Shown piece after piece: positions 6,860 through 62,485 of a stretch of 64,000 nucleotides of DNA. The position numbers and the translations under genes are program-made. Numbering within the stretch: the first letter of the stretch is position 1; every line of letters starts with the position of its first letter. Under the pieces are notes generated by a model. That model saw only the letters and a list, made by a program, of their open reading frames with translations, was not told the origin of the DNA and ran no database searches. The stretch lies in NCBI GenBank assembly GCA_000091205.1, contig AP006502.2; one strand, given 5' to 3'. The stretch is from Cyanidioschyzon merolae (lineage: Eukaryota).

Positions 6860-9454
6860 GACCGCCGCATACAGCGCTGCACTGGCCGTTGGTCGGATGG
6901 TGGCGGAGGCGATGGCGGATATGCTGCGGCGCTTTACATGTCGACAGATTCCCAGGATTTCAAAGACCCGGAAGGCAACACGTTCAAAGTTCGTTGCTAT
7001 GAAGCATGAGCTTTCGAAAGCGGGTTACGAAAGGTAACTCGCGTCGGGCATACCGTTCCCTTGCGGGCGAAGCGCACGTCGGCAGCGGGCGACAGCCCCG
7101 CACGCTTCACAGCGCCGAGCCCCTGCCTGAAAGAGCGTCCGCTGCGCTCGGGCGTCGCTACCCAGCAGTAAGTTCGCAGAGTAGGCCTGCACGTGCTGCA
7201 TAGTGACCGGAGCCCGTTTCCAGCAATACTTTGCGCGACTCGCAGACCATGGTTCACCGACTTGAGGTAGGCTTGCATCAGCGGTCTTCCCGTTCGCAGG
7301 CGAAACTGCACTGAGCTGCTCGTTCACCTTGAAAGGTCGCGATTGGCAAGCACGGTACAATGCAGAACATTGAGGGGGAACGGTACCGCATGTGCAAAGT
7401 GCTCACATCGATCAGCGTGCGGAACGATATGTACATCCATTTTCACGCGATACCTATCAACCATCATCATGGTTTGGCTTCTGGTGCCTCCAGACCAAAT
7501 CCCGTGCTCAGAGGATCGCGCTTCTTTCGACGCATGCTGGTGCACTCGCCCGAGGACAGCGGGAACAGCAAACGCATGTCGCCGCAGTGCATATACGCTG
7601 GATGGACGACCACTCGCTTTCGAGCAGTCGACGCTCGCGAGTATTCAGCAAACGTCTTCATCATGACGATGTCGCAGTTCCGAGGAATACGCTGTGACAC
7701 AGCGGCCGGTGTCGCGTTCCTGGCATCCCGCTCCCTTGTTGGCGCTCGTGCGTCCGCATGTGCACCGAAGGACGCACCAGTGCGCGTCTACGCATTCGGG
7801 GTACCAGCTGCGTTGCGACGCCACCGAAAACTCGCGAGTACGCGAAGCTTTGCTGGACGCACACCCTAGTATTGCTCAAAACGAGCACCAAGTAGAGCAG
7901 CACCTGCCCATGGAGTTGGTACGACAACAATGTCGTGCGTGGTAACCGAGCATTCAGGTGCTGAAGCGCGCAAACCCTTCACAACCGAAAATACCACCGT
8001 CATCGCGAGCGTCTCGCAGACAGTGCAGGAGGCGACGCGTACAACCAGGTCGCCTTGTAGGAGGCCTCCCTGGGCCGCTGGTGACCCAGCCTCTACCTGC
8101 ACCACCTTTGCGAACGGTCTCAGGTTCGACTGACCCAGACTCGTCTCAGTCCAGTCTGAGCTTTGTGCTGGCTGGTTGTCTCCGGGGCGGTGTTCCCGGC
8201 TCGAGGCAGTCCGCACCGCTGGTGCGCTCTCCACGACTCGTGACGCAGACGCTGTAGACGGTGCGGTTTGCGTGTGTGCTGGCCCGCTTGGAAGCATCTC
8301 CGGAAGCAGCCTTCCAGTTTCTTTCATTATCAGATAATAGTCGGTTTGCAGGCGCACGAGACGTTGCCAATACTGGCGGATCTGGTGTACATCGCAGTCC
8401 GAACGGGGGAAGCCGTCCTCGTGAACGAGTGGATCTCGCACCCCGGCAGGCGTGGCTTCTAAGCAGGATACCAAGTGTTCAATGTCACGCACGAATTCTT
8501 CTTACTGTAGGGCTAGCGCTAGTAGGCGCTGTACGCTGTCGGAGGTCATTTGTTCGACGTCTCAGACAGGCGAACGACGGCGCGTAGCTCCAGGCGTTGC
8601 CCCGGGAACCTTTACGGACGAGGTCGTTTACGAGGCTCAGCGTCCGAAGACCATAAAACGAAAGTATCATCGGAACTTGGCTCGAAAGGAATCTGGGCAG
8701 AGTGCTGACGCTGTATACGATTTTTGAATGACGACAACAACAGCGACAACCGGCCTCATGGCATGGTCAGAAATCGGGACTGTCGAGCAGTGGGACGCAC
8801 GAAAACCGCACAATTCAAACCAGTTTCTCATTCCAGCGTCTGTGCAGAATGGACTGCAAGAAACGGGAATAAACGTGCATCCGTAGTCGGGAAGACTGCG
8901 GCGCATAGTTTGTTTACGATCAATAAAACGAACGAAATTCCTGTTGAGTAGGGTGATGCATACCTCGCCCGCACAAGCGTAAGATACTACAATGGCTACG
9001 CTTTTGATACAGGCGTCGAGGGGTATCGTGCCAGGCCCCTGCATCCCCTTGTCTGTCAGGGCGGTACTGCGATGGGCAGTAGCGTCGGCACCAGCGACAG
9101 AACCTATAGCAAGAGTTCATTCTACGTGAGTTTCCGATGTACAATACGTTGTTTTGGCTGCAGTGCACCGGTGAGAGCACGCATGTGCCAATGCGGGGTG
9201 TCGGACACGTGTCCTTCATCGATCGGTGCAGCGTCTCGCGCGGTGCACGCATCGCGCTCAGTGCGCGCACCTAGGAGATCAGGCAGGCGTGAGACACGAC
9301 GCGCATGCCGCCGTTGAAGGGAAACGTAATCGTAATCCGTAGCGTCTAGCTCTCGTGTAAAAGTTGTATTTTCATTGACTTCATGGGCAAGTGTAGTTTT
9401 CAGTTCAATTGTGTTTGAAAACTCAAACAAGTGTATTCTAGTGTTTTGTCGCAG

Positions 9455-9462
9455 TATATAAG
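9455..9462 (+). promoter_or_regulatory. TATA box (TATATAAG) about 53 bp upstream of the Fanzor-like ATG
   Basis: Canonical eukaryotic TATA in gcagTATATAAGagg. It is followed by an A-rich leader, and the ATG is at 9515. Confidence 0.4.
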
Positions 9463-9514
9463 AGGAGCGTTCAAAGAGGGTTCTTTTTCAAAAAAAAACT
9501 AAACAAGGAAAGTT

Positions 9515-11801
9515 ATGAAAAAGCAAGTCGACGATCCAGGAGGCCCAGTGTCGCCGGCTGCCAGAAAGAAAAAACAAAACACAGTGCCGAGTCCAGAAGA
9601 AGAGGAGAAGAAAAAGAAGCAAAAGGAGGAGGCTCTACGTCGAGTGCTGCAAGAAAGACAACTGTACGACGAGATGGTTGTGAAAGCTGGTCTTCTTGGA
9701 TATATCAAGGATCCCTACAGGGAAAAGTTCCGAGGCGCTATCAGAAAACGTGTCGATTCGTACTCCAAGAGTACTGTCAAGGCGTCGTCAGGACTGATGC
9801 ACTCGGCGAGGGAGATGTATCGCGACGTGACGTACATGGAAACAGTCGAGGTCCCAGACGAGTTGTTCGACACGACCTTTATTCGATACTTGATGCTCGG
9901 TACCGGGGAGATGCGAAGGGAAAATGAGCGAGTGCACGCCCTCTGCCAAAAATACTCCTTCTACAGCTTCGAGGGTACTCGAAACAAGGGTGACTCGTGC
10001 ATTTACGAATACGGAGCGATAAAGTACCCCACGAACCTGAATAAACATTTGACCGTGAACCTCGAACGTTTCATGATACGCGCCGTGTTTGCACTCTACC
10101 CGGGCATCTCTCGCAAAGCGATATGGATCATCATCGATAGCATCAAAAACGATAGTAAGAATGAACAGGAGATCGAACTTGTTCACGAGAAGACATCATG
10201 CAGGAAAACGAATGAAGCTTCTGTAATCCGTGCGGCTATACAAGAGCACCGTGCAGCACTGGGGCTGGCGAGTCCAGCAGAAAAGATATCAGAGTTGAAA
10301 AAAGATAAGAAAAGATACGATCGCCCTGTCCTGCGCTATTCCATATTCCTGAACGGAGAACTGGAACGCAGGGCCGATATGGAGCACGGTGTGGAAGCAA
10401 ATGCAGTGCCGGAGAAACGGGAAGCTGCGCTTCTGGCGAGGCATTTCAACGTCGTTCGGTTACGCGAGATCAAGTCCCATTTGTGACGATCGACTCCACA
10501 GTCTTTCAGGACATCATGAAGGAGATCTGTCCGGATTTCGATGTCAGCAGGGAGGTGTTCTCCGGTGAAAACCGGGAGACGTTTGAAATCGAAGATATTC
10601 TGCTTCGATTTCAAACGCCTCAAAGTGAGCAAGCAAAAGCTATCCGCGGGGATGATCGAAACCGATGGCGTAGCCATGTGTGTTGACTATCGGCGGTTGA
10701 AAAGCGATCGTCCTGGCCCGTCTTCGATATTGCCCGTGACGAAGCATGAAGATGAGAAGGAGGCGGGTCCTGCGACGCAGGAGGTGGAGGATAACGGCTT
10801 TATCGTTGGCGCGGTGAAGCATGATGAAAACAAGAAGGCGGATCCTGCCACGCAGAAAGCGCAGGATAACGACTTTGTCGTTGGCGCGGACCCTGGGAAC
10901 ACGAATATCATAGCCATCGCAGTACCGAAGCGTGCGGAATATGGTCACGACGGTAACTTGCGCCAGAAGGACATGCGTCTGTCGAGATTCTCGACAGCGA
11001 GATACCATTGAGAATCCAGTATAATGAATGTGAGGAAGAAAATCGAGACATGGAATCCAGGAATGAAAGAGCATCTGGAAGCGATGAGCGAGGTGACGAG
11101 TCGCGGAGCGGACTGTAAAGCTTTTCGGAATTTCATGGAAGTTCGTGTTGCGCATTGGGATGCACTGTGGGAGGAGTATACAAAGCCCTGGTGGGATCGT
11201 CTACGTATTAATCTATACTGTCGGAAGCAAGGTGCATTCAAGAAAATTTTCGATGAGTTCAGCGCCTTGAAGGAGGATGAAAGTCAGAGGCTCGCATTAG
11301 CGTACGGAGCAGGGCGCTGGGCTCCGAAAAAAGGGTGTACACCAGCTCCAACTACAAGAACATACAAGGAGTGCGCAAGGCGTTTCGCTACGATACCTGC
11401 AGATGAGTTCCGAACATCGTATACACACCATGGACTGGGGTGCACATTTCAAAAGGTCGAGATGGGAAAGTGTTAACGGAGCCCTGAAGATATCAAAAAA
11501 GTACGGACCGCTGACAGAAGAGCAAATGGAAAGAAAAGCGAATGTTCGAGGGCTATTCGCATTAGTAAGTACAACCAATGGCAAGAAACTTATGCGATTC
11601 CTGTATCGCGACTTTGAGGCCGCTATCAATATAAGGGCATGTGCGGTGCTGGAGCATAGACCTCCAGAGTTGACACGAGAGAATTTTATGGGGCAACCTG
11701 TCAAAGTGGGACTATATGAGAAAACTATGAAACCAGTAGCAGGTGGCCGGTCGAGAGAAACTGGGAGGCGTCTGCAGCTCAGTTGGCGACTTCGTGTCTA
11801 G
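9515..11801 (+). pseudogene. Fanzor/TnpB-like RuvC nuclease (OMEGA family), disrupted
   Basis: The N-terminus is Lys-rich (KKKQN..EEEEKKKKQKEE) and NLS-like. RuvC-I is VVGADPGNTNIIAIAV at about 10881-10930. A TS..C zinc-finger region (DEFRTSYTHHGLGC) follows. RuvC-III is RDFEAAINIRA at about 11607-11640, matching the TnpB RDxNAAxNI signature. The reading frame is broken by stops at 10484-86 and 11009-11 and by frame shifts near 10480, 10630 and 11400-11476. Confidence 0.7.
10741..10890 (+). repeat. 75-bp direct tandem duplication inside the Fanzor-like ORF, just upstream of RuvC-I
   Basis: Unit 1 is 10741-10815 (gaagcatgaagatgagaagg...cgttggcgcggt) and unit 2 is 10816-10890. They encode HEDEKEAGPATQEVEDNGFIVGAV and KHDENKKADPATQKAQDNDFVVGAD. 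The duplication is in-frame and present in both element copies. Confidence 0.6.
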
Positions 11802-11818
11802 GGCGCGGGTCACGCGCC
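11802..11818 (+). other. GC stem-loop (GGCGCG-ggtca-CGCGCC) immediately after the Fanzor-like stop codon, near the right end of the element
   Basis: A perfect 6-bp inverted repeat with a 5-nt loop, read directly. It is conserved in copy 2 at 40240-40256. Its position at the 3' end of the nuclease ORF is where TnpB/Fanzor guide-RNA scaffolds and IS605-type end hairpins lie. Confidence 0.35.
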
Positions 11819-11963
11819 ACTACTGTACACCGGTGGCGTCGTTCGACTCTCGAACGGCGTTTGGTACGTGAGGAACAAGTTACCGGCCTCTGATGCGTGC
11901 TTCGCTTCAAGCCTCGGGTGACAAAGTCGTTTTCATCAGGACTGTACCGTTTCTTTCTTTCGT

Positions 11964-12917: not shown

Positions 12918-13952
12918 ATGAAGCGTTTTCCTGTGCAACAACGGGATGCTGAGGATCCTATCGAAGAGATCGCAGCCAACCGCTCACAAGCGTTTGCGTA
13001 AACGCAGTCCTTGCGCCATATCGGTCGCCGAGGTTGATCCAGCGTTTACGTACAGCGTTCTGTCCATTCATTTGCTTTCGATCAAACGATGTAGTTGCAT
13101 ATGAATCACATGTGACATGCAGTTGGGAGAAGCGGAATGGCACACGGGCTCCCGTGTATCGTACTAGGATGCAAACGCATGTGCAATGTGTGTGTGTGTG
13201 TCTGTGTAAAAGGGAAGTCTTGAATCGGCTGCAATCCACGGATGAATTCACACCACGCTTTGAGAGTTTTCTGTCAAGATCTGGGTTTCCCTGACCATTT
13301 GTGAGCTCTCGTGATGGAACAAAGCTGTTTTTGGATATAGAACGTGTTTATCGAGGACATTTTCCATGGATATCAGGTGATATTCAGAACAGGGGATTCT
13401 ACAATGCCTGTACCAGCATAACTTGTTTGTTTTAGGTGTATTATCGCTGGTATTCGATAAATTAAATGAATTTATCGTGTAGATTGGAGAAAGGTCGCGT
13501 AAATACTTGATGATGTGACTGGTAGTTTGCGAACAACGGCCTTGCATGTACGCATCAGTCACACCACATTCAGCAGGTGTGTGAATCACGCGCCTCGTAG
13601 ACCTTCCAATGAACGTCGTGTACCCGAAACAGAAGTTATCAAACGATATCCACGCGATTGTCTCGTATTCAATGTATTCCCGTATAGAATCCCACTGAGA
13701 AATTCGATTAGTGAAGCCACCGGACGTGAACTATTCGCACTGTTGACATGGACGGCGTTGAATAGACATGGATGGATAAAGGAGAAAGCACGCTTGGATG
13801 CCAAACCGTCTCGTGTTCAAAAGTGCACTGTCGATTTCGCAGTCAACCGATGACGCCGCTTTCAGGTTGGAAAGATGCTCGTTTCACTCGATGAGATTTC
13901 AGTCGGGAGACATGGCAGACTTGTATGTAGACATTGAAAGAGAGGTAAACCG

Positions 13953-15885
13953 CTGTTCGTAAGGAGGAGACGAGCGAGCATGCCGATATCATCCGTTCGC
14001 GGGCGATTCAATCGTACGATCGCCTAAACAGGTAACACAATACGCAGGACCTAACAGCACCTCATCCTTCGTCGAGGCACTCGTCGGGTTTCCCGCTTCC
14101 TATGATGTTCCGTGCTGCTTTCAGGAAACGCTGGTTTCCATCACTCAGAATCTGCCAAGGAGTATGCAACTGAGGCTGGCATTGAGCCGCTCTTCGTGCC
14201 CGCCTATTCTTTCTGGCTCACTCCGATTGAGGGCGTTCCCTCTGTTCCCGAACGCCATTGTTACGTTAACGGATCATTAGACGGGTCACTCGCTTCTACG
14301 ACACCGTTCTTTGAGGAATCGTTCTCTGCACTCAACAATCCTGAGCCGCTGTGTTGCTTTTCTGCTCGTTGGCGGGATGCGGTGGAGGCGCGCGCTTCGG
14401 TCTGTGGGTGTTCGCGCTACGGAAAACGCCATGAAAAGGCACCTGAGACAGCACAGATCCATGGAGACATAGAAGGAGCGAGTTCCGGAGCCACCGTCTA
14501 CCCAGTGCCTCTGGAATCCGACGAGAAAGCGTACATAGCGTACAGCGACGATACCCATGACTCCCCGCCATGTCAAGGACACGGCGATGGAAGAGCTGGT
14601 CTCCGCGGGCAAGTACGCAGCATTCGAACAACTCTGCGAAGGGCAATCAGGAACGCGCCCAGGTTTTCTTGCCTACAGGGATAGGCTGAAGGAAATGTAC
14701 ACGGGCGACAGACGCTGATGGAATATCAATCAGCACGCACTTTGTGAAGCCGGGACCTCTGTCGCGACATTGGACGCATGCCCGAGCCCTCACAGTAGAG
14801 GAAGCGAAGCGAACGCTTTGTGGCGGGCGTGGATCCCGCGTCGAAGAACATCACATTCATCGCCGTATCGCTAGATATAGCGGACGCAACCAAAGACCTG
14901 ACCTGAAACCAGGTGAAGCCGTTTAACTTTCCCACTACGCGATTTCATTGGGATTCGGGTACGGTGGAAGTCCGGAGGTATCCGAACATCTGGAACGACA
15001 AGGTCGGAACCGATCCCGATGCACCGAGCACCGTACGGAGCAGAGGCGAATGCTTCGTGCGCTTCATTCAGGAAGTACGCGAGTGTCGAAATGAACCATA
15101 TGGGCGGTTGCTGGCAGGATAACCTGGGATCACGCTGAACTCGGCAACGGTATCGGTAGAACGTAGACACGACTCGCGCATTCGCCACTTCCCTCAACGG
15201 GCCGGAAACCCAGGTGATCTCAAAGTCGTGTCGTTTGGTGATACAAGTCAATGGCCTTAGACGTGATGCAATGCCCAGAAGCCCGCACTCCCGGTCAAAC
15301 GGCCAGACCGAACAACGAGTCCAGGAATCGAGTATCTGCGAGACCCATCGATGCGTTCAGCACGACATGTGTACGCATCACGAGCATGCGGGCCCGCTGA
15401 ATCTGGTAGAAAGAAGAGCGCGACACATAGACGGATGCACGAGAAGGTGCACAGTGAGGTGACTGAGCGTCAAATGGCGAGGCGGTTGCAGGTGGGAAAC
15501 GTGCTATGGTGTGATTCCAAAAGGCATTCATGTGCGCTGGGGCACGCCCCGCATTGAGCACTGAACGTGTCGAACGGCAACCGATGATGACCCGCGCTTC
15601 CGGAGCGTCCAGCTGCTTTGTATGGCGCGAATGTTCAAGCGAATCGTTTCATAGCTCGTGTAGGCACTGTGGAAAATGCGGAGCACGTTCGAGAGCGTAA
15701 AATTAGGGTGCCGGAGAGAAGGCACTGGATTCTCGCCTGGATCCAGGCAGTCGTGTAGACCGGTTCAGCAATCCATCAAGGCTGGGTCACCTTGTTTAGA
15801 GATAAACCAGGGCGGATTTCCCTTTGGGAGACTGGTGAAACAACAAGGGATACGATTCCTCGACATTGCAGGGTATACATGAAGA
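13953..15885 (+). mobile_element. Repeat family B copy 1: 1.9-kb interspersed repeat containing a Tc1/mariner-type transposase C-terminal fragment
   Basis: Co-linear with 30454-32386 at an offset of 16501 bp. Paired ORFs are near-identical and the flanks are unrelated. Confidence 0.65.
14106..14684 (+). pseudogene. DDE transposase tail (Tc1/mariner/IS630-like), 5'-truncated and degenerate
   Basis: LLSGNAGFHHSESAKEYATEAGIEPLFVPAYSFWLTPIEG aligns with the mariner ..DNAxxHxs..vkefl...gi..l.wPaYSPDLNPIE block, including the third catalytic E. The DDE residues upstream are absent: the repeat begins only about 150 bp upstream. Confidence 0.5.
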
Positions 15886-20322: not shown

Positions 20323-20464
20323 GCAGCGTGCGCCTCAGGGTCACACAAAGTTCGCATCTTGACTTCATTGTCTAGTTTCTTGGGAGCATACTGCAACACG
20401 CTGCTCTGTGCACGCCGGAGCGCATGGCAGGGACCCTGCTGTCGAGAACGCTTCTCATCCAAAA

Positions 20465-20640
20465 GTCCGTAAATATACGAGGGAAATCGATCCAGCTGCA
20501 GTATCAGTGCATCACCACTATTCCCGAGGTATCCCGAGCATCGCAACGTATATCCCAGAGTCCGTAAATATACGAGGGAAATCGATCCAGCTGCAGTATC
20601 AGTGCATCACCACTATTCCCGAGGTATCCCGAGCATCGCA
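20465..20640. repeat. Two tandem copies of an 81-bp unit (period 95 bp) in the region downstream of the BASS gene
   Basis: gtccgtaaatatacgagggaaatcgatccagctgcagtatcagtgcatcaccactattcccgaggtatcccgagcatcgca occurs at 20465-20545 and again at 20560-20640. Confidence 0.85.
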
Positions 20641-29715: not shown

Positions 29716-30453
29716 CGGTAGCGTCTTGTCGTGGTATGCGGCGTTGCCTCGACTCGTTGTGCGCAGATGCCTTGCGAATATAGGAGCTCAGTGTCAGCGG
29801 AGTTCGGCTGATGGTGAGGCTACGATGCTGCCACGTTTTGGCGTGACAGCAGAAGGAACGGACGCAGCATCGCGCGTGCTGCTGGATTCCGAGCTGTGAA
29901 CTCTGGAACACCTGTGCCAGCACCCCCGTTTCATTTTGGATCGTTTGTCTCCCCGCAATTCAACAGCAGGATTTGTATCCTGTAGACGGCAGGGAGGTTG
30001 CCGAAAATCGTTATACTGTCACTGCAAGCATTCGAAAAAAATGACGTTGACGAGTACGTCATGTTGCTCTCAGCAGGTGATTGAACTTGTCTTCTCGTTG
30101 TGTTCATTCGGAAGGTTGTGTATTCATGCTAGAACTTTCCATAGTCTATCCACACAAATGTCTCTTCGTGAGTTGATTTCAGCGCGTAGTTTCTCTGAGA
30201 TTTACAACCGGAGTACCCAGAAGATAAGAATTTTTCACACGGGTGATCTGGACGGTGTCAAAGAGACAATGATAAACACAGAAAAGAAGCGCGCTTCTGT
30301 CAGCGACGGCCTCCGGTTCAGCAATACGACATCGAGCACGCACTGAAACGCAAACCCGAATGATAGTTGGCACTGGTTTTCGCCTCAGTCGATGAGTCTT
30401 TATCGGGAATGACTGATTCATCTGTATACGGGTATTCAAAGGGAGACAACCTG

Positions 30454-32386
30454 CTGTTCGTAAGGAAGAGACGAGCGAGCATGCCGATATCATCCGTTTG
30501 CGGGCGATTCAATCGTACGATCGCCTAAACAGGTAACACAATACGCGGGACCTAACAGCACCTCATCCTTCATCGAGGCACTCGTCGGGTTTCCCGCTTC
30601 CTATGATGTTCCGTGCTGCTTTCAGGAAACGCTGGTTTCCATCACTCAGAATCTGCCAAGGAGTATGCAACTGAGGCTGGCATTGAGCCGCTCTTCGTGC
30701 CCGCCTATTCTTTCTGGCTCACTCCGATTGAGGGCGCTCCCTCTGTTCCCGAACGCCATTGTTACGTTAACGGATCATTAGACGGGTCACTCGCTTCTGC
30801 GACACCGTTCTTTGAGGAATCGTTCTCTGCACTCAACAATCCTGAGCCGCTGTGTTGCTTTTCTGCTCGTTGGCGGGATGGGGTGCAAGCGCGCGCTTCG
30901 GTCTGTGGGTGTTCGCGCTACGGAAAACGCCATGAAAAGGCACCTGAGACAGCACAGATCCATGGAGACATAGAAGGAGCGAGTTCCGGAGCCACCGTCT
31001 ACCCAGTGCCTCTGGAATCCGACGAGAAAGCGTACATAGCGTACAGCGACGATACCCATGACTCCCCGCCATGTCAAGGACACGGCGACGGAAGAGCTGG
31101 TCTCCGCGGGCAAGTACGCAGCATTCGAACAACTCTGCGAAGGGCAATCAGGAACGCGCCCAGGTTTTCTTGCCTACAGGGATAGGCTGAAGGAAATGTA
31201 CACGGGCGACAGACGCTGATGGAATATCAATCAGCACGCACTTTGTGAAGCCGGGACCTCTGTCGCGACATTGGACGCATGCCCGAGCCCTCACAGTAGA
31301 GGAAGCGAAGCGAACGACTTTGTGGCGGGCGTGGATCCCGCGTCGAAGAACATCGCATTCATCGCCGTATCGCTAGATATAGCGGACGCAACCAAAGACC
31401 TGACCTGAAAACAGGTGAAGCCGTTTAACTTTCCCACTACTCCATTTCATTGGGATTCGGGTACGGTGGAAGTCAGGAGGTATCCGAACATCTGGAACGA
31501 CAAGGTCGGAACCGATCCCGATGCACCGAGCACCGTACGGAGCAGAGGCGAATGCTTCGTGCGCTTCATTCAGGAAGTACGCGAGTGTCGAAATGAACCA
31601 TATGGGCGGTTGCTGGCAGGATAACCTGGGATCACGCTGAACTCGGCAACGGTATCGGTAGAACGTAGACACGACTCGCGCATTCGCCACTTCCCTCAAC
31701 GGGCCGGAAACCAGGTGATCTCAAAGTCGTGTCGTTTGGTGATGCAAGTCAATGGCATTAGACGTGCTGCAATGCCCAGAAGCCCGCACTCCCGGTCAAA
31801 CGGCCAGACCGAACAACGAGTCCAGGAATCGAGTATCTGCGAGACCCATCGATGCGTTCAGCACGACATGTGTACGCATCACGAGCATGCGGGACCGCTG
31901 AATCTGGTAGAAAGAAGAGCGCGACACATAGACGGATGCACGAGAAGGTGCACAGTGAGGTGACTGAGCGTCAAATGGCGAGGCAGTTGCAGGTGGGAAA
32001 CGTGCTATGGTGTGATTCCAAAAGGCGTTCATGTGCGCTGGGGCACGCTCCGCACTGAGCACTGAATGTGTCGAACGGCAGCCGATGATGACCCGCGCTT
32101 CCGGAGCGTCCAGCTGATTTGTATGGCGCGAATGTTCAAGCGAATCGTTTCATAGCTCGTGTAGGCACTGTGGAAAATGCGGAGCACGGTCGAGAGCGTA
32201 AAATTAGGGTGCCGGAGAGAAGGCACTGGATTCTCGCCTGGATCCAGGCAGTCGTGTAGACCGGTTCAGCAATCCATCAAGGCTGGGTCATCTTGTTTAG
32301 AGATAAACCAGGGCGGATTTCCCTTTGGGAGACTGGTGAAACATCAAGGGATACGATTCCTCGATATTGGTGGGTATTCTGGCAGG
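30454..32386 (+). mobile_element. Repeat family B copy 2
   Basis: Co-linear with 13953-15885 and carries the same transposase-tail ORF, here at 30613..31185. Confidence 0.65.
30607..31185 (+). pseudogene. DDE transposase tail (Tc1/mariner-like), copy 2
   Basis: 190-aa ORF near-identical to 14112..14684, with the same ..AYSFWLTPIEG motif. Confidence 0.5.
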
Positions 32387-35207: not shown

Positions 35208-37893
35208 TAGGTGTGAGAATAGCGGGCGGTGTCGACGAGCGAACTCCGTCCAGCGCTTCAGCAGGCCACTGTGTGAAGGGCGATGACGTCGACGGCGGCG
35301 GTGACAGAATCGATCGCGGCAGTACGATCGTCTCTGGTGCGGCGGAGGCGATGGCGGATATGCTGCGGCGCTTTACATGTCGACAGATTCCCAGGATTTC
35401 AAAGACCCGGAAGGCAACACGTTCAAAGTTCGTTGCTATGAAGCATGAGCTTTGGAAAGCGGGTTACGAAAGGTAACTCGCGTCGGGCATACCGTTCCCT
35501 TGCGGGCGAAGCGCACGTCGGCAGCGGGCGACAGCCCCGCATGCTGCACAGCGCCGAGCCCCTGCCTGAAAGAGCGTCCGCTGCGCTCGGGCGTCGCTAC
35601 CCAGCAGTAAGTTCGCAGAGTAGGCCTGCACGTGCTGCATAGTGACCGGAGCCCGTTTCCAGCAATACTTTGCGCGACTCGCAGACCATGGTTCACCGAC
35701 TTGAGGTAGGCTTGCATCAGCGGTCTTCCCGTTCGCAGGCGAAACTGCACTGAGCTGCTCGTTCACCTTGAAAGGTCGCGATTGGCAAGCACGGTACAAT
35801 GCAGAACATTGAGGGGGAACGGTACCGCATGTGCAAAGTGCTCACATCGATCGGCGTGCGGAACGATATGTACATCCATTTTCACGCGATACATATCAAC
35901 CATCATCATGGTTTGGCTTCTGGTGCCTCCAGACCAAACCCCGTGCTCAGAGGATCGCGCTTCTTTCGACGCATGCTGGTGCACTCGCCCGAGGACAGCG
36001 GGAACAGCAAACGCATGTCGCCGCAGTGCATATACGCTGGATGGACGACCACTCGCTTTCGAGCAGTCGACGCTCGCGAGTATTCAGCAAACGTCTTCAT
36101 CATGACGATGTCGCAGTTCCGAGGAATACGCTGTGACACAGCGGCCGGTGTCGCGTTCCTGGCATCCCGCTCCCTTGTTGGCGCTCGTGCGTCCGCATGT
36201 GCACCGAAGGACGCACCAGTGCGCGTCTACGCATTCGGGGTACCAGCTGCGTTGCGACGCCACCGAAAACTCGCGAGTACGCGAAGCTTTGCTGGACGCA
36301 CACCCTAGTATTGCTCAAAACGAGCACCAAGTAGAGCAGCACCTGCCCATGGAGTTGGTACGACAACAATGTCGTGCGTGGTAACCGAGCATTCAGGTGC
36401 TGAAGCGCGCAAACCCGTCACAACCGAAAATACCACCGTCATCGCGAGCGTCTCGCAGACAGTGCAGGAGGCGACGCGTACAACCAGGTCGCCTTGTAGG
36501 AGGCCTCCCTGGGCCGCTGGTGACCCAGCCTCTACCTGCACCACCTTTGCGAACGGTCTCAGGTTCGACTGACCCAGACTCGTCTCAGTCCAGTCTAAGC
36601 TTTGTGCTGGCTGGTTGTCTCCGGGGCGGTGTTCCCGGCTCGAGGCAGCCCGCACCGCTGGTGCGCTCTCCACGACTCGTGACGCAGACGCTGTAGACGG
36701 TGCGGTTTGCGTGTGTGCTGGCCCGCTTGGAAGCATCTCCGGAAGCAGCCTTCCAGTTTCTTTCATTATCAGATAATAGTCGGTTTGCAGGCGCACGAGA
36801 CGTTGACGATACTGGCGGATCTGGTGTACATCGCAGTCCGAACGGGGGAAGCCGTCCTCGTGAACGAGTGGATCTCGCACCCCGGCAGGCGTGGCTTCTA
36901 AGCAGGATACCAAGTGTTCAATGTCACGCACGAATTCTTCTTACTGTAGGGCTAGCGCTAGTAGGCGCTGTACGCTGTCGGAGGTCATTTGTTCGACGTC
37001 TCAGACAGGCGAACGACGGCGCGTAGCTCCAGGCGTTGCCCCGGGAACCTTTACGGACGAGGTCGTTTACGAGGCTCAGCGTCCGAAGACCATAAAACGA
37101 AAGTATCATCGGAACTTGGCTCGAAAGGAATCTGGGCAGAGTGCTGACGCTGTATACGATTTTTGAATGACGACAACAACAGCGACAACCGGCCTCATGG
37201 CATGGTCAGAAATCGGGACTGTCGAGCAGTGGGGCGCACGAAAACCGCACAATTCAAACCAGTTTCTCATTCCAGCGTCTGTGCAGAATGGACTGCAAGA
37301 AACGGGAATAAACGTGTATCCGTAGTCGGGAAGACTGCGGCGCATAGTTTGTTTATGATCAATAAAACGAACGAAATTCCTGTTGAGTAGGGTGATGCAT
37401 ACCTCGCCCGCACAAGCGTAAGATACTACAATGGCTACGCTTTTGATAGAGGCGTCGAGGGGTATCGTGCCAGGCCCCTGCATCCCCTTGTCTGTCGGGG
37501 CGGTACTGCGATGGGCAGTAGCGTCGGCACCAGCGACAGAACCTATAGCAAGAGTTCATTCTACGTGAGTTTCCGATGTACAATACGTTGTTTTGGCTGC
37601 AGTGCACCGGTGAGAGCACGCATGTGCCAATGCGGGGTGTCGGACACGTGTCCTTCATCGATCGGTGCAGCGTCTCGCGCGGTGCACGCATCGCGCTCAG
37701 TGCGCGCACCTAGGAGATCAGGCAGGCGTGAGACACGACGCGCATGCCGCCGTTGAAGGGAAACGTAATCGTGATCAGCAGCGTCTAGCTCTCGTGTTAA
37801 AGTTGTATTTTCGTTGACTTTATGGGCAAGTATAGTTTTCAGTTCAATTGTGTTTGAAAACTCAAACAAGTGTATTCTAGTGTTTTGTCGCAG

Positions 37894-37901
37894 TATATAA
37901 G
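37894..37901 (+). promoter_or_regulatory. TATA box (TATATAAG) of Fanzor-like copy 2
   Basis: Same motif and spacing as in copy 1. Confidence 0.35.
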
Positions 37902-37955
37902 AGGAGCGTTCAAAGAGGGTTCTTTTTCAAAAAAAAAAACTAAACAAGGAAAGTT

Positions 37956-40239
37956 ATGAAAAAGCAAGTCGACGATCCTGGAGGCCCAGTGTCGCCGGCT
38001 GCCAGAAAGAAAACAAAACACAGTGCCGAGTCCAGAAGAAGAGGAGAAGAAAAAGAAGCAAAAGGAGGAGGCTCTACGTCGAGGGATGCAAGAAAGACGA
38101 CTGTACGACGAGAAGGTGGTGAAAGCTGGTCTTCTTGGACATATCAAGGATCCCTACAGGGAAAATTTGCGAGACGCTATCAGAAACCGTGTCGACTCGT
38201 ACTCCAAGAGTATTGTCAAAGCGTCGTCAGGACTGATGCACTCGGCGAGGGAGATGTATCGCGACGTGACGCACATGCAAACAGTCGAGGTCCCAGACGA
38301 GTTGTTCGATACGACCTCTATTCGATACTTGATGCTCGGTACAGGGGAAACGCGGACGGAAAATGAGCGAGTGCATGCCCTCCACGAAAAACATCCCTTC
38401 TACAGCTTCGAGGGTACTCGATACAGGGTTGACTCGTGTATTTACGAATACGGAGCGATAAAGTACCCCACGAGCCTGAATAAACATTTGACCGTGAACC
38501 TCGAACGTTTCATGATACGCGCCGTGTTTGCACTCTACCCGGGCATCTCTCGCAAAGCGATATGGATCATCATCGATAGCATCAAAAACGATAGTAAGAA
38601 TGAACAGGAGATCGAACTTGTTCACGAGAAGACATCATGCAGGAAAACGAATGAAGCTTCTGTAATCCGTGCGGCTATACAAGAGCACCGTGCAGCACTG
38701 GGGCTGGCGAGTCCAGCAGAAAAGATATCAGAGTTGAAAAAAGATAAGAAAAGATACGATCGCCCTGTCCTGCGCTATTCCATATTCCTGAACGGAGAAC
38801 TGGCACGCAGGGCCGATATGGAGCAGGGTGTGGAAGCAAATGCAGTGCCGGAGAAACGGGAAGCTGCGCTTCTGGCGAGGCATTTCAACGTCGTTCGGTT
38901 ACGCGAGATCAAGTCCCATTTGTGACGATCGACTCCACAGTCTTTCAGGACATCATGAAGGAGATCTGTCCGGATTTCGATGTCAGCAGGGAGGTGTTCT
39001 CCGGCGAAAACCGGGAGACGTTTGAAATCGAAGATATTCTGCTTCGATTTCAAACGCCTCAAAGTGAGCAAGCAAAAGCTATCCGCGGGGATGATCGAAA
39101 CCGATGGCGTAGCCATGTGAGTTGACTATCGGCGGTTGAAAAGCGATCGTCCTGGCCCGTGTTCGATATTGCCCGTGACGAAGCATGAAGATGAGAAGGA
39201 GGCGGGTCCTGCGACGCAGGAGGTGGAGGATAACGGCTTTATCGTTGGCGCGGTGAAGCATGATGAAAACAAGAAGGCGGATCTTGCCACACAGAAAGTG
39301 CAGGATAACGACTTTGTCGTTGGCGCGGACCCTGGGAACACGAATATCATAGCCATCGCAGTACCGAAACGTGCGGAATATGGTCACGACGGTAACTTGC
39401 GCCAGAAGGACATGGGTCTGTCGAGATTCTCGACAGCGAGATACTATCGAGAATCCGGTATAATGAATGCGAGGAAGAAAATCGAGACATGGAATGCAGG
39501 AATGAAGGAGCACCTGGAAGCCTTGAGCGAGTTGACTAGCCGAGGAGCGGACTTTGAAGCTTTTCGGAATTTCATGGAAGTTCGTGTTGCGCATTGGGAT
39601 GCACTGTGGGAGGAGTATACAAAGCCCTGGTGGGATCGTCTACGTATTAATCTATACTGTCGGAAGCAAGCTGCATTCAAGAAAATTTTCGATGAGTTCA
39701 GCGCCTTGGAGGAGGATGAAAGTCAGAGGCTCGCATTAGCGAACGGAGCAGGGCGCTGGGCTCCGAAAAAAGGGTGTACACCAGCTCCAACTACACGAAC
39801 ATACAAGGAGTGCGCAAGGCGTTTCGCTACGATACCTGCAGATGAGTTCCGAACATCGTATACATACCATGGACTCGGGTGCACATTTCAAAAGGTCGAG
39901 ATGGGAAAGTGTTAACGGAGCCCTGAAGATATAAAAAAGTACGGACCGCTGACAGAAGAGCAACTGGAAAGAAAAGCGAAGGCTTGAGGGCTACTCGCAT
40001 TAGTAAGTACAACCAATGGCAAGAAACTTATGGGATTCCTGTATCGCGACTTTGAGGCCGCTATCAATATAAGGGCATGTGCGGTGCTGGAGCATAGACC
40101 TCCAGAGTTGACACGAGAGAATTTTATGGGGCAACCTGTCAAAGTGGGACTATATGAGAAAACTATGAAACCAGTAGCAGGTGGCCGGTCGAGAGAAACT
40201 GGGAGGCGTCTGCAGCTCAGCTGGCGACTTCGTGTCTAG
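37956..40239 (+). pseudogene. Fanzor/TnpB-like RuvC nuclease, copy 2, disrupted differently from copy 1
   Basis: A 2-bp deletion near 37990 splits the N-terminus into ORFs 37956..38366 and 38023..38925. The stop at 38923-25 is shared with copy 1. Copy 2 reads through where copy 1 has TGA (tatCGAgaa here versus catTGAgaa at 11009-11011). An extra stop (gcTTGAggg) lies near 39985. RuvC-I GADPG and RuvC-III RDFEAAINI are retained. Confidence 0.65.
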
Positions 40240-40385
40240 GGCGCGGGTCACGCGCCACTACTATACTTCCGACCGCAGCAACGTTTGGTGGGTGAAGGCA
40301 GCACGCCTCATTTCGAGTGCTGTGCTCGAGTTTATACCCCAGCTGCGGGAACTTTTGCGGATAGCCATTTCTCGCCAAGTGTCTC

Positions 40386-47972: not shown

Positions 47973-49105
47973 TATGAGAGCATAAACTCGAGATCAGGTG
48001 CCCAATCACATCTAGTCTCTTTAGAGCTGACCCAGTATACTCGTTGAGTGCAGCACGTGCAAGAATTGAAACCTGGTGGCGGGAAAAATGTCGAGTTGGC
48101 GAGTGGCGCCGAGTGCGGCGTACCACGTGCTGCCGGTCGAAGCGATGGCATCTTGAGTTGTCCTTTAGGTTCACGTTTGAGCAAAAACTACTCGATGCCA
48201 TCCGCAGGCCCTTCGCCAGCTGCAGCTCAGCGTTGGCATCCTGCGTTTCATACGAGCAGTAGGATCCTGCTATGGCTGGGGCTCAGCGTCGGGGAATTAG
48301 CGGATGTTTTGTCGAGCAAGGCTCTCTGGTACGTAGCAGCGACCTGTAAGCGGTGCTATGACGGGTTGCTCGTGCCAGGAGCGGCCGTGATCGGTTCGTA
48401 CTCCCGAAATAAAATGCCGTGTCAGATTACTACAGAATAGGAGCTTCTCGCAAAGTTCTTACCTTTCGATACTGCTTGAACATTTGTTGAGATTTAGTAC
48501 TTCGACAACCCAGGTATAGCTATAAGGGCTTATAGATTCGTGAGTCGTTTCGGGATTATCGGTTGGGGTGTCGGCGTGGCGCCTTTAGCGATTTGCAGCT
48601 GGAGTTCCTTAGGTTATTGGAAACAAGATGATTCGCGATGCCTGCGAACACGCGCACTTACAATAACCGATGTCATTGACCAGTGCACTCGTGCAAGTTT
48701 TCATGCTTTCCCTTTGGATACCGTGGAGCAGGCGCACATCACGCAATCCTCGGTTTTCCCGATCTTTGTTTCTTGAGGGAGCTCGTGCGCGCAGCAACTT
48801 GCACAGCTGGACTGGCGATGAACAATATTCGACGGTGTCATTTGTCGACTTGTTGACAAGTTCATGCCGAAACACCACTGAAATTTTCACGTCAAATAAT
48901 CCGTTTTGTTCAAAAGACGAGTCCTGCTCTCTTTCTAGCCATCGACGTAACCGCATTCGATACCACCAGCAGCAGCAGCAGCATGATACCTGTCAGGGGA
49001 TGTGCTCCCAGATGCGTCCATTTCATCTCTTTCCATGGAAAAGAATATTTGACTCGGCATTCTGTCATTGCGACGATGGCCTAGTTTCGACAGATTGTCA
49101 TCACT

Positions 49106-60920: not shown

Positions 60921-62485
60921 ATCATCTCTTGCGGAGCACTGGACCTATTTTGGTAGCGATAGCGCGACGTGAACTTGTGCTTTGGCTGCTTGCTGCAGCT
61001 GCATTCGTTACGGGCTGTGCACAGCGGCAGATGCCTTCGAGAAACGTATGGCGCACGGTAATGAAACCTGAGCGCACTGCAACATACCCGGAGCTGCTTG
61101 TAGAGCGTACAGCCACTGCAGCAGCTGGTTGATCCGGAGAAAACAGTTTCCAGTTGCATTGCGGATTGCAGGGCGCTGCATCCATCGCAGGGAAGAGTGA
61201 AATGGGGTTCCCTCGGCTGACTCGGGGACACACGTATTCGTAAGGTTAGGGTCTTTTTCACTAGCCATTAGACTGAGCCTACACGCGCTTTTTCTTCAGT
61301 GACTGCTCCCTTTTCCTCTCTGTTTTGAATCAGGATTTACGCGTGCCGGTCTCCGATGTCCATCAAGGTCCGTTGTCAGCCGTAGAACGGTATTCACGGG
61401 AGTGTTCGGGTCCCGGTAGCGCCGCTTTCGGCTGTTGTCGACGCATTTCACTCACAGGAGGTAGTTGCCATCTAGGCTACGCTTGCCATGTTCACCTTTT
61501 TTATGGACAGCCTCGGGGCGCGCTTCGCACCCGTGACACTTGTGCATGCTCGGGTTGGCGCTTACGTTCATAAGACCCCTCGCTTCCAAGGGCCGTTCCG
61601 TGAAGTGCGAGCGCTTCCCTCGCCACGCTTTCATGGTCCTTGACGAGTGCAGAACATTCCGCTCCATACTCTGTATTGTTCCCGCGCCTGATGCCGTACC
61701 CTACCGTCACGGGCTTCTTCTTGGCGTTGTCGTCTGCATGGGGGCTCTCCGCTGGATTGCCCGCACACGCTGTACAGTTCGATAGAAGATCTGTTGAACG
61801 CGAGCGTGTTCATCATAGAACGAGTATCCCAAGGAACATCCAGACAGGAGCCCAAGTCGATAAATTCCAAATTGTCTACACTTCTTTCATGCAAAGCGAT
61901 GATGAACGCTCGACTCGAGGTTATCGCTGCGATGACTACATTCCGATTCAACGATCCCTTTCCATGCAGATACAACAGAATAGACGAAAGCTTTAGCGAG
62001 CATGTCCCGTGCCGCGATCCACCATGTCGTCAAAGATCGTTTCTTCGATGACCATAAAGAGAAGAGTAAGAGTGTCCCACACGTAATATATTATTTGACG
62101 TGAAACGTTTCTTATGGTCTCTGCTTCAGCTTGTGAACGAGTCGACAACGGACCAGGTCGACTTACTTTTCCGATCCAAGCTCCGGGCGCGTAACGCTTC
62201 GCCCCGCGAGTCGCCTTGAAACAGAAAGACAAAAAACCTGACGCATGCGTGATATGGGTATGCTGTAGGCGAGTACGGAAGGCGGGAGCCTAGAGGCTCG
62301 AACGTTTGAATTTGAAAACGATGCTGGTTATTTCACCAGCCATTGGTCGAGGGCACCGCGACTCACGTTGATTCTGTTACTTGATGAATCCCAGCAGCAA
62401 AGAGTCTACGGAGCCAGCCCCGAAAACATGACCAAGTATCCTGAAATGACGTTTGAGTCCGTAATCTCCTGATGCTGCACTTGGA

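Follow-up and report, generated by a model that had tools for sequence, protein, structure and literature searches.

The 64,000-nt stretch of contig AP006502.2 of Cyanidioschyzon merolae analysed here (assembly GCA_000091205.1; hereafter the window) carries two copies of an open reading frame (ORF) belonging to the Fanzor1 nuclease family, each followed directly after its stop codon by the same short GC-rich hairpin. Our results suggested that this hairpin very probably belongs to a guide-RNA-type module at the right end of Fanzor1 elements. More specifically, we regard it as probable that the hairpin forms stem 1 of such a module; copy 1 is a relic in which the module is intact, which it is not in copy 2. 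An initial annotation of the window had proposed a guide-RNA scaffold region at the end of copy 1. A conserved and structured right-end module does indeed open at the hairpin, but it is longer than was proposed, is intact in copy 1 only, and is attached to a dead gene.

The right-end module and its two hairpins

All features are given on the plus strand unless stated otherwise. The Fanzor1 pseudogene of copy 1 occupies positions 9515..11801, as delimited by translations, comparison of the two copies, and relatives, and ends with a TAG stop codon at 11799..11801 in a GTCTAG context that is kept in most relatives. Direct reading bore out exactly what the initial annotation had described next, namely a perfect 6-bp stem with a 5-nt loop at 11802..11818 (GGCGCG-ggtca-CGCGCC), here termed hairpin 1 and proposed as stem-loop 1 of the scaffold. 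It is followed by the conserved, single-stranded linker ACTACTGTAC (11819..11828), which is near-invariant in 67 right ends and unpaired in the fold of copy 1 (W1), and then by hairpin 2, a long stem-loop at 11829..11865 that was delimited by its fold and by 51 distinct versions. Hairpin 2 is the proposed scaffold stem 2 and, of the two window copies, is present in copy 1 only.

A scan of metagenome contigs yielded at least 491 relatives, 80 loci of which were fetched for comparison. The DNA of these relatives aligned with copy 1 past position 11828, mostly to 11857–11865 and in a few cases to 11880. The 67 distinct right ends showed a shared order consisting of the GTCTAG stop, hairpin 1 (GGCG..loop..CGCC), ACTACTGTAC, a long hairpin 2 and (T)TTGGTG, past which the flank sequence was different in every independent locus. 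Mean pairwise identity was ~0.8 in the coding 3′ end, 0.62–0.72 in the module, 0.33 at 11860–11879 and 0.13–0.30 beyond, and the majority-base frequency among relatives fell after 11862–11866. Conservation of this two-hairpin non-coding module of ~65–70 nt was seen in 88 copies linked to an ORF, but not in copy 2 of the window. When a profile of the module was searched with nhmmer, the region from 11796 to 11865 gave a full match (62.5 bits), and copy 2 was matched only from 40234 to 40287 (19 bits). The 3′ flanks of the distant intact relatives L085 and L086 were read by eye; single copies of this kind cannot define an end.

The two copies of the window cease to match after ...CCACTACTGTAC (11828) and ...CCACTACTATAC (40266). 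The initial annotation had put the end of their similarity near this place, at 11830 and 40268, which is 2 nt too far, and had taken it for the right terminus of the element. Because the conserved tail of the relatives continues through the linker and hairpin 2 to ~11862–11866, neither 11828 nor 40266 is the element terminus, and the sequence comparison places the right end of copy 1 at ~11862–11866, which is ~38 nt to the right of the earlier boundary. The candidate guides that had been read from 11831 onward are therefore hairpin 2 sequence, i.e. putative scaffold instead of flank, and those from 40269 onward are element sequence of a second right-end subtype. The initial annotation had also named copies without the hairpin, or with ends elsewhere, as evidence that would speak against it; the hairpin was found at the same place in 42 distinct versions, and it was the end that lay further right.

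Comparison of the 42 distinct versions of hairpin 1 revealed that the outer GGCG/CGCC is nearly fixed. The stem has 4–6 bp in 36 of the versions and 2–3 bp in the other 6. At the fifth pair, some versions have G.U, A-U or C-G, and others have no pairing. Support for hairpin 1 as a structure is moderate. Hairpin 2 of copy 1 consists of a core, CGTTCGA-ctc-TCGAACG, and an outer stem, ACCGG.../...TTGGT. Among its 51 distinct versions, this position is occupied by at least four sequences unrelated to one another, including CGTTCGA-ctt-TCGAACG, CGTTTTTC-tttt-GAAAGACG, a GC-rich stem of 15 bp (L010), and another one (L011). Canonical pairing of hairpin 2 centred on the loop was 0.78 in these versions, compared with 0.50 when the partners were permuted; these are our own loop-centred counts, which are biased towards pairing. 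Alignment was broken by differences in loop length and by two hairpin-2 registers, and a second MAFFT alignment mis-gapped hairpin 1.

The minimum-energy fold of the copy 1 module, with an energy of −34.4 kcal/mol (z −3.3), comprises both hairpins, and the reverse complement of the module gave −26.3 (z −2.1). The module of copy 2 folded at −24.1 (z −0.3), which is no better than shuffled sequences. The sense strand was more stable than the antisense strand in 45 of 56 modules, with G.U making up 14.6% of pairs, and this strand bias fits an RNA made from the sense strand, or single-stranded DNA. The last codons of many relatives, equivalent to ~11775–11797 of the window, could form an additional small hairpin (ACGTC-agttgga-GACGT), as could AGACG-ttt-CGTCT, which overlaps the stop; most of this pairing is gone from copy 1, and the region is coding.

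Furthermore, three solo modules were found that have no adjacent ORF and retain both hairpins together with ~36 nt of the ORF 3′ end. Because this part of the ORF is kept, the unit possibly starts near 11765, ~35 nt upstream of the stop. The solo modules are located at 1266–1336 of L030, at 1836–1902 of L056 (1835–1901 of L060) and at 956–1024 of L065. They lie ~330 bp upstream of the 5′ region, of the type termed class A below, of a full Fanzor element, and the intervening sequence is conserved among these loci. The solo modules might represent 'ghost' guide loci, or else a copy of the module that belongs to the left end.

Fanzor1 identity and decay of the nuclease gene

The ORFs had been annotated as encoding a TnpB- or Fanzor-type nuclease, and profile and fold searches identified the family as Fanzor1. 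A protein search revealed close relatives of the window protein with 60–75% identity that carry DUF8286, and a sequence search found 2,468 clusters of the family among 1.84 billion representatives. When a profile of 101 family members was compared with the Protein Data Bank (PDB), it matched PpFz (9cf0, E 4.5e-23), SpuFz (8gkh, 1e-16) and GtFz (9cer, 2.9e-11), and the motifs DPG, DEFRT and RD.NAA.NI aligned between the family and the solved Fanzor1 proteins. The 101-sequence profile was needed for this, as a PDB search with only 20 close relatives gave no Fanzor match; a Pfam scan of the ORF pieces of the window gave no meaningful match. AlphaFold with a shallow alignment reached a predicted local distance difference test score (pLDDT) of only 46.8, which was unusable. 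For P0031, an intact family member of 676 aa found elsewhere, the AlphaFold (AF2) model had a pLDDT of 90.9, and a fold search with it returned SpuFz at the top (template modelling score, TM, 0.62–0.71; E about 1e-16), then PpFz and GtFz, with Cas12f and TnpB ranking far below the Fanzor1 structures. The assignment was therefore made on the family profile and the P0031 model, not on the broken ORFs of the window. Among the RuvC catalytic residues in the 101 sequences, D398 and E569 are invariant and D636 is nearly so, and the window copies retain the RuvC motifs GADPGN, DEFRTS and RDFEAAINI. Fanzors of Rhodophyta are known from surveys (PMC10530073).

Neither copy of the window (copy 2 at 37956..40239, from translations and copy comparison) holds an intact, translatable nuclease gene. 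Both have frameshifts at positions equivalent to ~10480 and ~10590–10610 and a TAA at 11474–11476 that corresponds to CAA (Gln) in relatives. Copy 1 has in addition a stop at 11009–11011 and an extra C at 11494 of its own, and copy 2 has a 2-nt deletion at the position matching 9569–9570 and extra stops. Introns as the source of the frame breaks were considered and rejected; since the relatives read straight through these points in one continuous ORF, the breaks are mutations. The Fanzor1 ORFs of the window are thus pseudogenes, relics instead of working members. Only a few of the 80 related loci (L004, L001/L023) have near-full-length ORFs, and most are broken. Conservation by codon position in the family was 0.74 at the third position versus 0.84 and 0.86 at the first and second, a pattern indicative of past selection on the protein. 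The ORF also contains a 75-nt tandem repeat in two copies at 10741..10889, detected by Tandem Repeats Finder, self-BLAST and protein alignment, and present again at 39180–39328. It encodes an acidic unit, approximately KHE.EKEA.PATQ.V.DN.F.V.A, the number of which varies among relatives from one to at least four (e.g. P0008, P0029).

Proposed guide-RNA role and alternative readings

In active members, the module would be transcribed together with the 3′ end of the gene and processed into the scaffold of an omega RNA or Fanzor RNA (fRNA), and the guide would be the ~15 nt just outside the right end. We infer this role by analogy with SpuFz1, as the module shares its position and two-stem-plus-linker plan with the SpuFz1 RNA and is similar to it in size. 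The omega RNA of SpuFz1 begins after the stop and has a 75-nt scaffold with two stems and a linker, followed by a variable guide of 14–15 nt copied from the flank; a large part of its stem 2 is dispensable, and 'ghost' scaffolds without an ORF work (PMC10432273). In general, the fRNAs of Fanzors come from non-coding sequence 3′ of the gene that borders on the right end (PMC10530073). In copy 1, the guide would begin at ~11866, and the predicted flank was set at 11866..11881 (start ± ~4 nt) from the drop in conservation and the SpuFz1 analogy, its length being borrowed from the 14–15-nt guide of SpuFz1 (PMC10432273). Variable sequence does lie directly beyond the conserved putative scaffold; what was observed is variation, and use of that sequence as a guide is suggested by the same analogy. 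A search of the rest of the window for matches to the candidate guides with up to 4 mismatches gave none worth noting.

Of the known systems, SpuFz1 of Spizellomyces punctatus (Saito et al. 2023, PDB 8GKH) is structurally closest to the family model. The algal module resembles its RNA in measuring ~65–70 nt from stop to end and in its build, with a 10-nt linker between a short stem 1 and a long, highly variable stem 2, and the 'ghost' scaffold copies of that system have a likeness in the few solo modules of the algal family. However, protein sequence identity is only ~15%, and the RNAs show no similarity. SpuFz1 elements are marked by inverted repeats of 30 nt and by a left-end CA/CATA motif, whereas neither inverted repeats nor a target-adjacent motif (TAM) could be defined in the algal family. 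The RNA and activity of SpuFz1 were demonstrated experimentally, whereas the algal family is known from sequence and its window copies are pseudogenes. The closeness of the architectural match is hard to explain if the module were a mere 3′ untranslated tail of the nuclease mRNA, serving end formation or stability without guide function. Such a tail would agree with the place of the module directly after the stop on the sense strand and with its sense-biased structure. However, the conservation ends sharply at unique flank, so the block is bounded by the end of the element and not by a feature of the gene, and solo modules occur without an ORF; we consider this explanation very improbable.

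PpFz1 of Parasitella parasitica (PDB 9CF0-3), the strongest profile match, and GtFz1 of Guillardia theta (PDB 9CER-T) are both among the top fold matches. They share the aligned DPG..., DEFRT and RD.NAA.NI motifs with the family, but are distant from it (11–15% identity in structural alignments) and were compared by protein alone. ISDra2 TnpB (IS200/IS605) likewise combines a RuvC nuclease with a guide RNA that spans the 3′ end of the gene and the right end and takes its guide from the flank, and ISDra2 has hairpin-bearing ends. It differs in being only a remote fold match (TM about 0.2–0.37) and in the pseudoknot of the TnpB omega RNA, which the SpuFz1 RNA does not have. The host here is eukaryotic, and no Y1 transposase was seen in the loci, in which no systematic search for one was made.

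Several observations weigh against a guide-RNA function. The inner positions of hairpin 1 are unpaired in many versions. RNAalifold recovered only 3 pairs from a MAFFT alignment of 35 mixed right ends, and in the subset of one subtype ('variant 2') the changes were mostly one-sided and covariation within subtypes was weak. The pairing statistics come from related sequences and from folds of single sequences, and thus overstate independence. No Rfam family matched the module at a permissive threshold. Neither a left end nor a TAM could be defined from the left regions of the relatives, and the hairpins could just as well function as DNA. Moreover, pseudogenes also make up most of the 80 related copies, so that shared descent and not selection may lie behind much of the conservation.

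The last point leads to the reading that hairpin 1 is functionless, a chance 6-bp GC stem whose conservation stems from recent common descent of decaying copies. Hairpins of this kind are about as common as chance expects: the window contains 143 perfect 6-bp hairpins with loops of 3–8 nt, against ~113 in sequences simulated by a first-order Markov model, and 4 with all-GC stems, against ~5.6 simulated. Because they are not rare, the significance of hairpin 1 lies solely in its presence at the same position in the 42 distinct versions. The prevalence of pseudogenes, the unpaired inner stem and the weak covariation noted above also agree with absence of function. On the other side, the module is recognisable across copies that differ by 20–40%, whose flanks cannot be aligned, hairpin 2 stays in place and remains paired although its sequence takes at least four different forms, and the asymmetry between sense and antisense strands supports a real structure. 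We consider lack of function improbable.

A further alternative concerns the left side of the elements. The core common to all relatives begins at ~9248, ~267 nt upstream of the ATG, and upstream of it four classes of 5′ region (A–D) of different extents were distinguished. The window copies are of class A, have no left end and are cut at 8808; other class A copies extend 110–1500 nt further left. Only class D has a sharp left boundary, with a T-rich flank (TTTTTC...) without a fixed motif. Class D starts at TGACAAAACGTTTAC, a sequence similar to TGAAAGACGTTTG in the 3′ arm of hairpin 2. All four classes are joined to the same core; the region in question lies ~820–930 nt upstream of the ATG in related loci, e.g. 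in L013, L064, L082, L043 and L079. Both hairpins might be DNA-level signals at transposon ends that are recognised by a transposase, for instance in the form of single-strand hairpins as in IS200/IS605 or Helitron-type elements, possibly besides an RNA role. This is an unlikely reading, though one with several points in its favour. The module stands at the extreme right end, and hairpin 2 is long, near-palindromic and terminal. In some long class A elements, the module recurs ~1.1 kb upstream of the gene, as it would if it marked a left end, and the class D boundary TGACAAAACGTTTAC is loosely like the 3′ arm of hairpin 2. In addition, transposons of the HUH type typically carry terminal hairpins (PMC10288648). 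Conversely, the frequent G.T wobble pairs and the greater stability of the sense over the antisense strand favour one transcribed strand, and the equivalent region of SpuFz1 is an RNA scaffold. A search with the module profile gave no match at the left boundaries of classes C and D, and no transposase gene turned up in the elements, among which no systematic search was made.

Within the guide-RNA reading itself, we further envisage, as a speculative and rather unlikely extension, that the family uses a modular guide RNA in which stem 1 and the linker are fixed and stem 2 is swapped among at least four unrelated hairpins, with the solo modules being independent guide genes or a left-end recognition site. 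If they were a left-end site, this would mean hairpin-dependent, IS200/IS605-like single-strand mobilisation in a eukaryote.

The segmental duplication, its surroundings and significance

The two relics lie in a direct repeat of 4.9 kb with 97.9% identity, of which copy 1 occupies 6902..11828 and comprises host DNA plus the Fanzor1 relic (self-BLAST and reading of the junction), and copy 2 occupies 35341..40266 (self-BLAST and copy comparison). BLAST of the window against the 80 loci showed that family similarity is limited to 8808–11880 and 37247–40286, and 6902–8807 had no match in any of these loci. The non-coding part upstream of the copy 1 ORF, a class A 5′ region truncated at 8808, spans 8808..9514 (BLAST against the loci). 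The 4.9-kb repeat was considered as a transposon and rejected, its left 1.9 kb being host-type DNA absent from all relatives. This part contains a Nas2/PSMD9-like host-type gene on the minus strand (7866..8492; Pfam Nas2_N, E 7.1e-15, and weaker PDZ_6/PDZ_2 matches), which lies outside the Fanzor element. The gene, which resembles a proteasome chaperone, is duplicated near 36305–36931, and the alga appears to have two near-identical copies of it. In the initial annotation, each copy had been taken for a transposed element of its own. In view of the common frameshifts, nonsense codon and truncated left end, and of the host Nas2 gene included in both, we instead consider segmental duplication of one already-dead relic to be the simplest reading.

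In copy 2, the stop at 40237–40239 is followed by a hairpin identical to that of copy 1 (40240–40256) and by the linker ACTACTATAC (40257–40266), both established by direct reading and together spanning 40240..40266. Past 40266, copy 2 aligned to the second right-end subtype, variant 2 (GCAGCAACGTTT...TGAAGGCA), and to L044; this stretch (TTCCGACCGCAGCAACGTTTGGTGGGTGAAGGCA, 40267..40300), a degenerate right end of that other subtype, lacks hairpin 2, and copy 2 has no intact module. On this reading, the right junction of the duplication would lie within the right end of a resident element belonging to another subtype, and the divergence of the copies most likely starts at a recombination junction inside the right end instead of at a transposon terminus. 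The junction at 40266 is also present in two other assemblies of the species; assemblies of the species break at the repeat, and further copies from it were not recovered. Divergence between the copies is patchy, amounting to ~0.6% over long stretches and to 5–7% in blocks at 9500–10040 and 10700–11120, with clusters of differences listed at 9334–10040, 10700–11120 and 11526–11600. These blocks look like gene conversion from other family members.

Other repeats were found in the window. A second dispersed direct repeat, 13948–15876 and 30448–32377 (98.2% identical), stands in reversed order relative to the Fanzor repeat in the two regions. It carries an ORF (14112–14684) encoding a fragment of a DDE_3 (Tc1/mariner/IS630-type) transposase with an E value of 1.4e-6, just at the Pfam cut-off, and probably represents the remains of a DNA transposon. 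A direct repeat of 89 nt has two adjacent copies, at 20457–20545 and 20552–20640, with 98% identity and a spacing of 95 nt. An inverted repeat of 72 nt (48829–48900 and 62090–62161) is weak (72% complementary, arms 13 kb apart) and may be due to chance. A neighbouring ATP-binding cassette (ABC) transporter shows 75% identity to its counterpart in Cyanidiococcus yangmingshanensis, 62% to that in Cyanidium caldarium and 99% to a protein from ENA and Logan assemblies, and the source is a cyanidiophycean red alga. Look-ups of exact proteins with this transporter, as translated from the start codon chosen here, and with two ORF pieces of the window gave no match.

For the window, the result is mainly corrective, in that the element is dead and its supposed boundary is most likely a recombination junction within a duplication. 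If the module is a scaffold, its limits would now be ~11799 (possibly 11765) to 11866, which would allow a direct Fanzor1 test, and the natural variants of stem 2 would indicate which parts tolerate change. Cyanidiophyceae inhabit hot acid springs, and an intact member might therefore be a heat-tolerant RNA-guided nuclease. Such a thermoacidophilic red-algal Fanzor1 system would be testable through an intact relative or a reconstructed consensus.

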